This document shows positions 21,001 through 24,000 of a stretch of 64,000 nucleotides of DNA, in pieces. Position 1 is the first letter of the stretch. Each line of letters opens with the position of its first letter. Position numbers: made by a program. The stretch is taken from the NCBI RefSeq assembly GCF_053078305.1, contig NZ_CP166879.1; one strand, written 5' to 3'.

Positions 21001-24000
21001 ATCAGTTCTGATAACAACAAAACGCCATCACTGATGGTAGCATATACGTTGCCACTGTAACTCCTGACGGAACAGTGGCAGCGTTACATGACGCACGGTG
21101 TCTGGTCGAAGTGACCGTCCAGGCGGTCACTGAACTCGATAATAAAGCAGCTCATTTCCATACGCCAGTCCTTCAACGGCATCGTCCATTTCTGGGACGC
21201 AGACTGGATTGCCAGCCACACAACTTTTTTCACCGCCTCGTTTGTCGGGAACACTTTACGCTTTTTGATCGCATGGCGGATCACGCTGTTTAGCTACTCG
21301 ATGGCATTCGTCGTATAGATCATTTACATATACCTGCCCCACTGATGTCTGTAACCCCCGACTCGGTGGGGCAGATTTCAGAAAGTATACCTGCCAGACA
21401 ATATATATTCCCGTCCTGCAGCCTGATAGCCATAACCAGTCTCATAATCTTTGTTGAACAGATTAGCTATTTTACCGCGAACTATCAGGTGAGGAGTGAC
21501 CGGATACGCAACCGCAACATCCCATAAACTCACACCGCCCATTTTGACTGACTTATAGGGCCAGGATGAGTAGTCCGAATCGTATCGCGATCCCATATAT
21601 TGATAAGTTATCCCCCAGTCAAAATCGAACACTTGCCAGTCAAGTTGATACTTCACTTGCAGTTTTGGACGACGTTCCAATGGTTTGTCAGTTAAGGCAT
21701 TTCTGGCATCCATATAATCGTAACTAACAGTATGCGTCAGTGCTCCTGTATCAAAGTTTACTGTAGCCTCAATTCCTTTAATGTGTACTTTTCCGTCGTT
21801 GTAATAACGAAGGGTATGAGGATTATAGTTAATCATTTCACTGATATAATTACGGTATCCTGAAATACGCCAATTTACGCCCCCAGTTAAACCTTCAAAT
21901 GCCCCTTCCCACTGTTTACTCTTTTCCGGAGCCAGATTCGGATTACCATACATACCATATAGCTGCCCCAGATTTGGCGCTTTGAAAGCAGTTCCATAGG
22001 AAGCGATAAAGCGATAACCCTCAATAAACTCCCATCCCGCACTGGATTGCCATGTTGTGTGGCGTTCAAATTGCGAGTTGTCGTCATTACGCACCGCGCC
22101 TTCTAACGTAAAATCGCCAAGTTTTTGCAGTCCTGTCAGATAAATCCCCGTGTTACGCTGATCGTAACCTTTTGGCAGATATCCAGTTCCAGGTGAAGTG
22201 GATTGTTTTTGCCAGTCGATACCAGCGCCAACATTACCGTGGCCGACTGTGACGCTATTTGTCCACTGTAGATTGTATTGTTTCATCTCATCCCGGTTAG
22301 CTGATGTGTCATAGCGTCCATAATGTGGATCGTAGTTGTAATCTTTACTATGGCTATAACTGGAAACAAGTTGAGATTGCAGTGTTTCACCAGCGTAGCG
22401 AAGACCTGCATCCCAGCTTTGACTATAAAGTTTTCGAGTATCAATCAGTGGAGAACCGGGAGAGTACCAGGCGTCATATTTAGTTCGGTTATCATAGCCG
22501 TAGCCACGAACAAATCCGCTCCACGTATCAGATAAGTTATGTTCAAGTTTGCCATAGAATGTTTTACTTAAAAAACCGTCTCTGTCTGACTGTGGTTGCA
22601 TCCCTGTACTGCCATAGGCAACAGCATCAAACCCCCTAGTATAGGTATAATCACCAAGAAGTGTTACACGGGTATTTTCACCAAGTTGCAGATGAGTGGA
22701 TATATCGTAATGTTGATAACTATTACTTCCCCATCCTGCGGAAATTTCAGTGCCAGTATTCTCACGGGATGTAATAATATTTATCACTCCGCCAATGGCA
22801 TCTGAACCATAAATTGCTGAACGTGGCCCACGGATATATTCTATACGCTGCACTAAAGCGACGGGAAACTGACTCAGGTCTGCAGCTCCACTGACACCCG
22901 CTAAATTCAGGCGCACTCCATCAATCAATACCAGAGTGTGGTTAGAGTTTGTCCCACGAACAAAAATTGTTGAGAGCTGCCCTTCACCCCCATGCTGAGA
23001 AATTGCAACGCCAGGCAAACGACGCAGAACATCATTTACAGAAGAAACCTGCCAGCGATCTATATCTTCTCGTGTCACAATAGTTACAGGAGCAAGCACG
23101 GTACTTAATGGTTCCTGAAAACGGTTAGCAGTAACAACGAGAGTATCCGGAGGGGTATCCTGTGCCCAGACAGAAAAGGCTGTGACGGAATACACCATTA
23201 GAAACCAATATTTTTTAATCATTGTAACGCATCCACAACAGAAGAAGAATATCGCAGTTACCATCGATAGTAAGTGATGATGAGAACCAGATGCGACGTT
23301 AACCGACAGGTCTTCAGACCTGGAAGGGCATCTGAAGATACAAAGAGATGATGATGCCCCCCCACCGGATGACCGTGTCCACATTACGCAATCATCGCAC
23401 CTTTCCTTACCGCTGCGTGTCAGTTTCGGATTCGCACTGGATTCCCTATTAACTCGCAGGACCGACAACTGGATATTACTGGTTGTAACAAGTTACTGTC
23501 CATACATGACTCAAAAATAGGAATGCATGAACACTCGGATCTAATACACATAATATTTTATCGGCGACCATAATAAGAATAAAACATATATATGCTCAAT
23601 TAGTTCTTTGATAGATTTCATATTAAAACCAGTAGAGCCATTCAGCGTGCAGAAAATAAACAATATAATTCTGTCACCAGAACATCCATACCTAAGCTCC
23701 AGTACTTACCAACTTCAGAATCCCATTCTTATCGCAATTGCATGAGCAGTATCTGATTGAATAATGTAAACACCAAATGAGGCCAAATTATTCAGACATT
23801 AAACTAGAACGCCAGTTTGTCTTTCGTTATTCTCAGGTACATTAGTTATAACCTGTTCCGCTCCCAATATACTCGCTAAATAGTAAATCAATGCATTAGC
23901 TCTGCTCGTGTGACTAAAAATCAAATTAATCACATACTGGCCACACTCATCAATAACCACTACCGCTGGAGTGCTGAATTTATTGTTGACCTGAGATGAC

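Follow-up and report, generated by a model that had tools for sequence, protein, structure and literature searches.

When a vitamin B12 receptor gene is carried on a virulence island together with the leader of its chromosomal counterpart, does it remain under the control of B12? We addressed this question for an island-borne paralog of btuB, located in a stretch of 64,000 nucleotides from contig NZ_CP166879.1 of RefSeq assembly GCF_053078305.1, which is referred to as the window hereafter. Over 21.8 kb, the window shows 100% identity to contig JPQG01000001.1 of Escherichia coli strain 48, an E. coli producing Shiga toxin (STEC), from roe deer (PMC5323612). Judged by nucleotide identity and gene order, the gene is the btuB of the proteolysis activity locus (LPA) and of module II of the adhesion and autoaggregation locus (LAA), islands of STEC which are negative for the enterocyte effacement locus (LEE), and as such it is already catalogued and annotated. 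Inventories of STEC islands have included it for two decades under the name "vitamin B12 receptor", and in automatic annotation its leader is called a cobalamin riboswitch. An earlier note on this DNA had likewise described an intact riboswitch, reproducing that of E. coli btuB almost base for base, and a gene that is probably regulated by B12. Our analysis points to a different answer. We favour, with moderate confidence, a working extra B12 receptor which has its own promoter and a leader deaf to adenosylcobalamin (AdoCbl), and which would be made regardless of B12 status. If the riboswitch is dead, the locus would be a natural case of a receptor freed from metabolite feedback with the protein kept, and it carries the practical warning that an Rfam match above threshold can be a fossil.

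Probable decay of the island btuB leader

The island leader is 244 nt long, as against 240 nt in K-12, and is homologous to the E. coli btuB leader over its length. It is preceded by a promoter-like site which aligns exactly with the canonical btuB promoter; the column of its TGGACA element is invariant in the leader alignment, and its -10 element reads TAATAT where canonical leaders have TAGCAT (Table 1). Identity to the K-12 leader amounts to only 204 of 244 positions (83.6%), which falls well short of the near base-for-base agreement that had been described. The leaders of Salmonella and Citrobacter are also ~85% identical to that of K-12, but their differences avoid the conserved positions. 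The check with the Rfam covariance model RF00174 (Cobalamin), which the earlier note had proposed, was passed with 45.5 bits, the gathering score being 31.5. This is about half of what canonical leaders reach, as the K-12 leader scores 87 bits and 15 of 16 canonical btuB leaders of other species score 83-98 bits, while island leaders range from 45.5 to 47.3 bits. RF00174 alone already separates canonical leaders from island leaders, and a lineage-specific covariance model was set aside, since canonical sequences would score well on it by construction. The highest of the island scores, 47.3 bits, was obtained with a LAA copy from which the promoter is missing, as is the 5' strand of the closing helix. 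Because a 5'-truncated copy reaches this value, a threshold-passing score of ~45 bits is uninformative on the integrity of the leader, and the Rfam check is not discriminating here.

To locate the changes we used a leave-one-out comparison with 17 canonical leaders, in which a change was called private when it departs from a column where all the other canonical leaders agree. The island leader region carries 19 private changes in 149 invariant columns, 16 of them 5' of the ATG, against 0-2 by the same count in Escherichia, Salmonella and Citrobacter. Relative to K-12, the island leader differs at 15 of 124 conserved and 21 of 116 variable columns and the Salmonella leader at 0 of 124 and 31 of 116, respectively (Fisher p = 1.7e-5). 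Twelve of the 16 private leader changes are GC-to-AT transitions, which is the direction of the usual mutational bias. Among the canonical leaders a sole low score was noticed, that of the insect-gut symbiont Tenebrionibacter intestinalis (locus L023, positions 3762-3937), which reaches 54.7 bits and has 14 private changes at conserved positions; this leader may be a second case of riboswitch erosion.

The private changes fall in named elements of the riboswitch, and the individual substitutions are given in Table 1. The P4 hairpin retains 3 of 5 pairs, with two uncompensated mismatches, where all canonical leaders have 5 of 5. The B12 box AGCCCGAAGACCUGCCGG is present in 16 of the 17 canonical leaders (the other one differs at two bases) and is replaced in the island leader by GGUCUGAAGACCUGUCGG, which amounts to three changes at invariant positions. 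Computed in silico, the five-pair duplex between the loops L5 and L13 has an energy of -7.4 kcal/mol in K-12 and -0.7 kcal/mol in the island leader. The P14 hairpin, which sequesters the Shine-Dalgarno (SD) sequence, has a computed energy of -9.9 kcal/mol in K-12, and the same structure imposed on the window gives +2.2 kcal/mol; in a partition-function fold the pairing probability of SD with anti-SD is 0.99 in K-12 and at most 0.05 in the window. From the alignments and the folding in silico taken together, we infer that the island leader is a fossil of the btuB AdoCbl riboswitch. The half-canonical score and the changes in conserved functional elements are at odds with an intact riboswitch, and the B12 regulation that the earlier note thought probable had rested on that intactness.

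Decay appears from the alignments to be continuing among the island copies. The LPA copy has GGGUGG and a 6-nt deletion at the place where the window carries GGGGGGGCAUC. In LAA copies, which make up at least 38 of the 60 listed complete genomes (the best 60 of the 68 that carry the island gene), the promoter is gone together with the initial ~9 nt of the leader, and the open reading frame (ORF) is kept. One such LAA copy, that of the O91:H21 strain FWSEC0008 (locus L033, positions 5345-5800), has unrelated DNA in place of the lost promoter and leader start, and its RefSeq label is still riboswitch.

Retention of the receptor coding sequence

The ORF of the island btuB is uninterrupted over 614 aa; a longer ORF of 696 aa, starting from a TTG at 23468, was rejected as a mere mechanical 5' extension. 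That the product is BtuB-like over its whole length, as stated in the earlier note, was borne out by the NCBIfam model NF007926, which matched residues 1-614 with 1038.3 bits (equivalog cut-off 836), and by TIGR01779 with 851.8 bits (cut-off 599.7). The island protein shares 79% identity with K-12 BtuB (b3966), and the genes share 77% at the DNA level. Both the plug (PF07715) and the 22-strand barrel (PF00593) are on record in Pfam for the exact island protein and for its cluster. The TonB box, DTLVVTA at mature residues 6-12, is the same as in K-12, and so are all six of D179, Q191, D193, D195, D230 and D241, the calcium-coordinating residues of the extracellular loops in the crystal-structure literature on BtuB. 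With every sequence hallmark present, the island BtuB is most likely a working TonB-dependent cobalamin receptor.

The composition of the gene sets it apart from its canonical relatives, as the GC content at third codon positions (GC3) is 0.36 in the island btuB, 0.51 in K-12 and 0.49-0.68 in 17 canonical genes. The ratio of nonsynonymous to synonymous substitution rates (dN/dS) between the island btuB and the canonical genes is 0.03-0.065, and 0.065 with respect to K-12. When coding sequences were simulated at the substitution rate of the conserved sites of the leader, none of 5000 retained an open ORF. All 60 listed genomes and the protein cluster of 638 members have the island ORF at full length. 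On balance, these observations show that the coding sequence has been maintained by purifying selection. Differences from K-12 are mildly enriched in the extracellular loops (0.27 versus 0.18-0.20), with assumed strand boundaries and topology, and the pattern in Salmonella is alike; surface diversification for escape from colicins or phages was considered, and with an enrichment so mild and shared with Salmonella no case could be made for it.

A proposed second receptor outside B12 feedback

The chain of events that we propose is as follows. A cassette (~21341-23605) would have been captured from the chromosomal trmA-btuB-murI locus of an enterobacterial lineage, and the retained btuB promoter would transcribe the island gene. 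Mutation would have struck the parts of the leader that build the ligand pocket, namely P4, the P6/P7 GGGAAG loop and the B12 box, as well as those that relay the signal, namely the L5-L13 kissing loop and the P14 hairpin over the SD. Translation would then proceed whether or not AdoCbl is abundant, and a second B12 receptor would escape the feedback that shuts off canonical btuB. More speculatively, this might provide a steadier supply of B12 to the island diol dehydratase and to other B12 enzymes in a host unable to make B12. If this is true, B12 import would persist while the chromosomal btuB is shut off, which bears on the use of propanediol and ethanolamine in the gut, and the effect is expected to be modest. 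The suggestions of the earlier note that scavenged B12 feeds the diol dehydratase and that the island BtuB is an extra receptor for colicins and phages both appear plausible.

A number of observations pull the other way and have to be set against this proposal. What we say about RNA function is derived from sequence comparison and computed structures. The leader scores above the Rfam threshold and has 84% identity to a working riboswitch; most of its helices still pair by way of G-U wobbles, and a weaker or retuned AdoCbl response is possible. Some of the leader changes may have arisen in the donor lineage, where the element possibly worked, and a misfolded leader could lower expression instead of freeing it. 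In the protein, 22 of 295 residues that are invariant in other genera carry private changes, more than in relatives; dN/dS between the window and the LPA allele is 0.32, a value from only 19 differences; and relaxation of the entire cassette, to some degree, is possible.

The similarity to K-12 and the surviving wobble pairs would be expected if the leader were a functional AdoCbl riboswitch and the island btuB were B12-repressed, perhaps with a shifted threshold. The annotation of the leader as a riboswitch by the NCBI Prokaryotic Genome Annotation Pipeline (PGAP) and the retention of promoter, SD and start-codon context fit this alternative as well. We nevertheless regard it as unlikely, for the score which it appeals to is half that of 15 of 16 canonical orthologues and is matched by the 5'-truncated copy, the mismatches in P4 are uncompensated, L5 and L13 have ceased to be complementary, the B12 box and GGGAAG carry changes, and P14 is destabilised by ~12 kcal/mol. 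PMC3866643 describes docking of L4 on the P6/P7 loop and an interaction of L5 with L13 that AdoCbl induces. Repression of the chromosomal btuB of E. coli by AdoCbl is ~97%, and it is abolished when the P13 pseudoknot or P14 is destabilised (PMC11162775); in another corrinoid riboswitch, kissing-loop mutations resulted in constitutive expression (PMC10327014). Lesions comparable to those of the island leader abolish regulation in experiments.

The protein-level observations raise another alternative, that the entire cassette is a decaying passenger in which RNA and protein are both unused and the ORF is open merely for lack of time. The dN/dS of 0.32 and the private changes at invariant residues speak for it, as does the loss of the native promoter in many LAA copies. 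We consider it improbable in view of the full-length ORF in the 60 listed genomes and in the 638-member cluster, the low long-term dN/dS, the intact TonB box and calcium site, and the failure of any simulated ORF to survive. A retained receptor behind a dead sensor remains the reading that we prefer.

Distribution of the island gene and the canonical copy

The espI-iha block of the window and its btuB region match the island that is inserted at tRNA-Phe (pheV) in strain 2013C-3181, with 97.8% identity over 10.1 kb and 98.6% over 2.2 kb, and the RefSeq annotation of that island includes "btuB" and "cobalamin riboswitch". According to PMC9729726, PMC5539235, PMC6174562 and PMC4393859, a vitamin B12 receptor gene has been assigned to this type of island since Schmidt et al. 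2001; the LPA sequence has the accession AJ278144, and the btuB of LAA dates from 2017. Many E. coli assemblies at NCBI contain a gene for the exact island protein among the same neighbours. Among 5,426 complete E. coli genomes, the island btuB was found in 68, with ~98.6% identity, and btuB matches in 5,423. Two btuB places were observed in 59 of the 60 listed genomes, and the exception, STEC1587, proved on inspection to have the canonical trmA-btuB-murI locus. The second copy which the earlier note had called for is therefore present in these genomes; in strain 48 itself a chromosomal btuB is presumed from the other genomes. In STEC1587 (locus L032, positions 15414-19856) an insertion sequence (IS) of the IS3 type lies between the canonical btuB and trmA, ~240 nt 5' of the ATG, and no riboswitch is annotated there; the native btuB of this strain may be deregulated or silenced, beside the island copy.

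The version of the island that is linked to pdu genes was found in none of the complete RefSeq E. coli genomes and in at least 24 draft assemblies. In the literature it is represented by only a passing remark, concerning a single LEE-negative STEC with a pdu cluster (PMC3491183), and we found no literature on the state of the island riboswitch. What is new here are modest points, namely the putative fossil leader and a lineage of STEC draft genomes in which the btuB cassette is fused to a pdu operon and cob debris.

Origin of the cassette

The island btuB overlaps at its 3' end with the beginning of murI, as in the native arrangement, which argues that the cassette was cut from a trmA-btuB-murI chromosome and not from a cob/pdu cluster. 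A trmA remnant was looked for 5' of the island leader and none was found; the junction of the cassette with the pdu side, at ~23605, is a rearrangement point. Among 5.8 billion proteins, the nearest to the island BtuB outside the island and rare mosaic alleles were those of Salmonella (81%) and E. coli (79%), and a scan of species-representative genomes for a donor gave only canonical btuB loci. The mosaic alleles are found in rare E. coli at the native trmA-btuB-murI locus (L029, positions 4001-5845; L030; L031, positions 6001-7845). Neither the protein search nor the mosaic-allele loci yielded a native leader of the donor lineage, and the mosaic alleles P0002 and P0003 were rejected as a source for it, as they occupy the native E. 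coli locus with an E. coli leader.

To the left of the cassette lies a short ORF (21084-21284, minus strand) which by eye is similar to the C-terminus of a transposase of the IS256 family; on the equivalent stretch RefSeq has an incomplete hypothetical protein. This ORF may mark the mode by which the cassette was captured.

The cob/pdu neighbourhood

The gene neighbours are as the earlier note had described them, with virulence genes (espI, an AraC-type regulator gene and iha) on one side of btuB and a cob/pdu module on the other, and the module does lack cobalamin synthesis: its cob genes are debris, and cobUST is absent from the window. Coordinates of all these features are collected in Table 1. 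In the pdu operon, equivalog or subfamily models of NCBIfam matched PduB, PduC, PduE, PduG, PduL, PduO (N-terminal domain), PduP and PduW with scores exceeding their cut-offs, and an NCBIfam match was also obtained for PduS, while PduD and the remaining shell genes were identified by gene calls; pduX is absent after pduW. The pdu module has only 76-78% nucleotide identity to the chromosomal pdu locus of E. coli.

Table 1. Features of the btuB cassette, its leader and the flanking genes, in window coordinates
Feature	Coordinates	Strand	Basis
LPA/LAA-type virulence module	12350..21011	.	97.8% to espI-iha block of 2013C-3181; NCBIfam
espI	12350-16441	-	
AraC-type regulator	17355-18095	-	
iha	18924-21011	+	
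murI remnant, first ~35 codons, overlapping the btuB end	21341..21433	-	tblastn 51%/35 aa, E = 2e-4; blastn 80%/71 nt
btuB paralog coding sequence, 614 aa including 20-aa signal peptide	21378..23222	-	ORF, ATG 23222, stop ending 21378
Putative decayed AdoCbl riboswitch and expression platform (5' leader, 244 nt)	23223..23466	-	alignments
P14 region; anti-SD GCAUCC changed to AUAUUC, opposite SD GGAUGC (GGA 23234-23232)	23228..23254	-	folding
P13/L13; loop CGCGU changed to CACUU, complementarity to L5 lost	23261..23282	-	alignment
Rfam RF00174 (Cobalamin) match	23288..23481	-	45.5 bits, gathering score 31.5, E = 3e-08
B12 box; AGCCCGAAGACCUGCCGG changed to GGUCUGAAGACCUGUCGG	23301..23322	-	alignment
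P6/P7 internal-loop motif; GGGAAG changed to GGGGGG, 3 nt extra	23355..23363	-	alignments
L5 loop, one half of the kissing loop; ACGCG changed to ACACG	23416..23420	-	alignment
P4 hairpin remnant; 5' arm UCCAG kept, 3' arm CUGGA changed to CCGAA	23425..23441	-	alignment, pairing
btuB promoter position, TGGACA-18-TAATAT	23473..23502	-	promoter scan; alignment
144-aa ORF, N-terminal third of CbiG	23799..24233	-	NF004463 positions 1-137/351, 162 bits (cut-off 546); Pfam CbiG_N
cbiA (cobyrinate a,c-diamide synthase) remnant, weak	24974..25265	-	stretch with stops in all frames
Well-preserved second cobalamin riboswitch; leader of the cob operon, downstream of pocR	25531..25705	-	RF00174 108.2 bits
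pocR	25946..26863	-	NCBIfam PocR equivalog 530 bits, cut-off 500
pduF (major intrinsic protein (MIP)-family channel)	27067..27849	-	
pdu operon, pduA to pduW	28379..44146	+	NCBIfam, gene calls, ORFs

The second riboswitch of the window, with its score of 108 bits, now heads only pseudogene debris (the cbiA remnant and the CbiG N-terminal ORF) and lies 2 kb 5' of btuB on the same strand. In chromosomal pdu loci of E. coli (locus L011, positions 8045-8482) a 145-aa ORF, 37% identical to the CbiG N-terminal ORF of the window, stands between the cob riboswitch and cobUST. That two ORFs so diverged are both open suggests that the CbiG N-terminal ORF may be more than a remnant.

This arrangement opens another route to expression, by which transcription from the PocR-activated cob promoter would read through the cob riboswitch into btuB and make the gene propanediol-induced and B12-repressed. 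The idea is compatible with the other readings, such control could operate alongside btuB's own promoter, and we give it little credence. The order of pocR, cob riboswitch, cbiA remnant, CbiG fragment and btuB, all on the minus strand, is what it requires; the stretch from 24233 to 23500 yielded no convincing intrinsic terminator, and the chromosomal pdu loci of E. coli have the same riboswitch and a CbiG-like ORF before cobUST. On the other hand, ~1.2 kb of untranslated pseudogene RNA should trigger Rho-dependent termination, btuB has its own promoter, and the junction at ~23605 is a rearrangement and not an ancestral operon. Furthermore, the LPA/LAA islands carry btuB without any pdu or cob DNA, and linkage to cob/pdu is therefore not needed for the retention of btuB. 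If read-through were true, btuB would be induced by 1,2-propanediol, and the sensing of B12 would fall to the cob leader in place of that of btuB. A btuB with a dead sensor would then occupy the slot of the Salmonella cob operon, so that B12 scavenging would have replaced synthesis under the same logic; to this extended idea we attach only a slim chance. A btuB expressed from its own promoter through an unresponsive leader is still the reading we would put forward.

Other features of the window

At the left end of the window (1-3800) are a ParA gene and the replicative helicase of islands of the Salmonella pathogenicity island 7 (SPI-7) type (DnaB-PI), with 98.5% identity to integrative elements of bovine and human STEC. 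No tRNA gene was found within the window, and the island therefore abuts another mobile element here. The stretch that follows pduW (44150-51500) has fragments like IS66, IS21 and IS4 and a transporter of the major facilitator superfamily (MFS), D-galactonate transporter subfamily (46567-47859). Toward the window edge lies an ORF of 2300 aa for a repeat-rich exoprotein (57031-63933, minus strand), to which NCBIfam gave no match, followed by a 241-aa ORF with a VENN motif (55960-56685, minus strand). By eye, the two together look like a CdiA of contact-dependent inhibition with an orphan toxin module.

Comparison with known systems

The closest known relative of this locus is the segment of LPA and of module II of LAA, which has in common with the window the order espI (lesP), AraC-type regulator, iha and btuB and a nucleotide identity of 97.8-98.6%. 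The LPA/LAA copies also share decayed leader changes with the window copy. The difference begins beyond the btuB promoter region, where the LPA-type island at pheV continues into unrelated DNA, whereas the window (beyond ~23605) has the CbiG fragment, cob debris, pocR, pduF and the pdu operon. The window copy moreover retains the promoter and the full-length leader, which LAA copies have lost.

With the canonical btuB of K-12 (b3966) the island gene shares the protein family, the length, the architecture of the leader, the position of the promoter and the overlap of the murI start with the btuB 3' end. It differs in the state of the riboswitch, which scores 87 bits in K-12 and 45.5 bits in the island with lesions in P4, the GGGAAG loop, the B12 box, the kissing loop and P14. 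In the mosaic 'type 2' alleles (L029-L031), the body of the coding sequence belongs to the divergent, low-GC3 lineage of the island btuB (81-98% identity in stretches of 100 nt, GC3 0.38), but native E. coli sequence makes up the leader (87-88 bits) as well as ~45 nt at the start and ~100 nt at the end of the gene, so that replacement was confined to the body.

On the other side of the junction, the gene order and the regulators (pocR, pduF, the leader riboswitch of cob and the pdu operon) are the same as in the Salmonella-type cob/pdu regulon. E. coli XJ6.1 resembles the window in having the cob riboswitch followed by a CbiG N-terminal-like ORF and no cob operon. The window differs from both the Salmonella-type cob/pdu locus and the cob-less loci of E. 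coli in that a btuB cassette stands in place of cobUST, with a remnant of cbiA still present.

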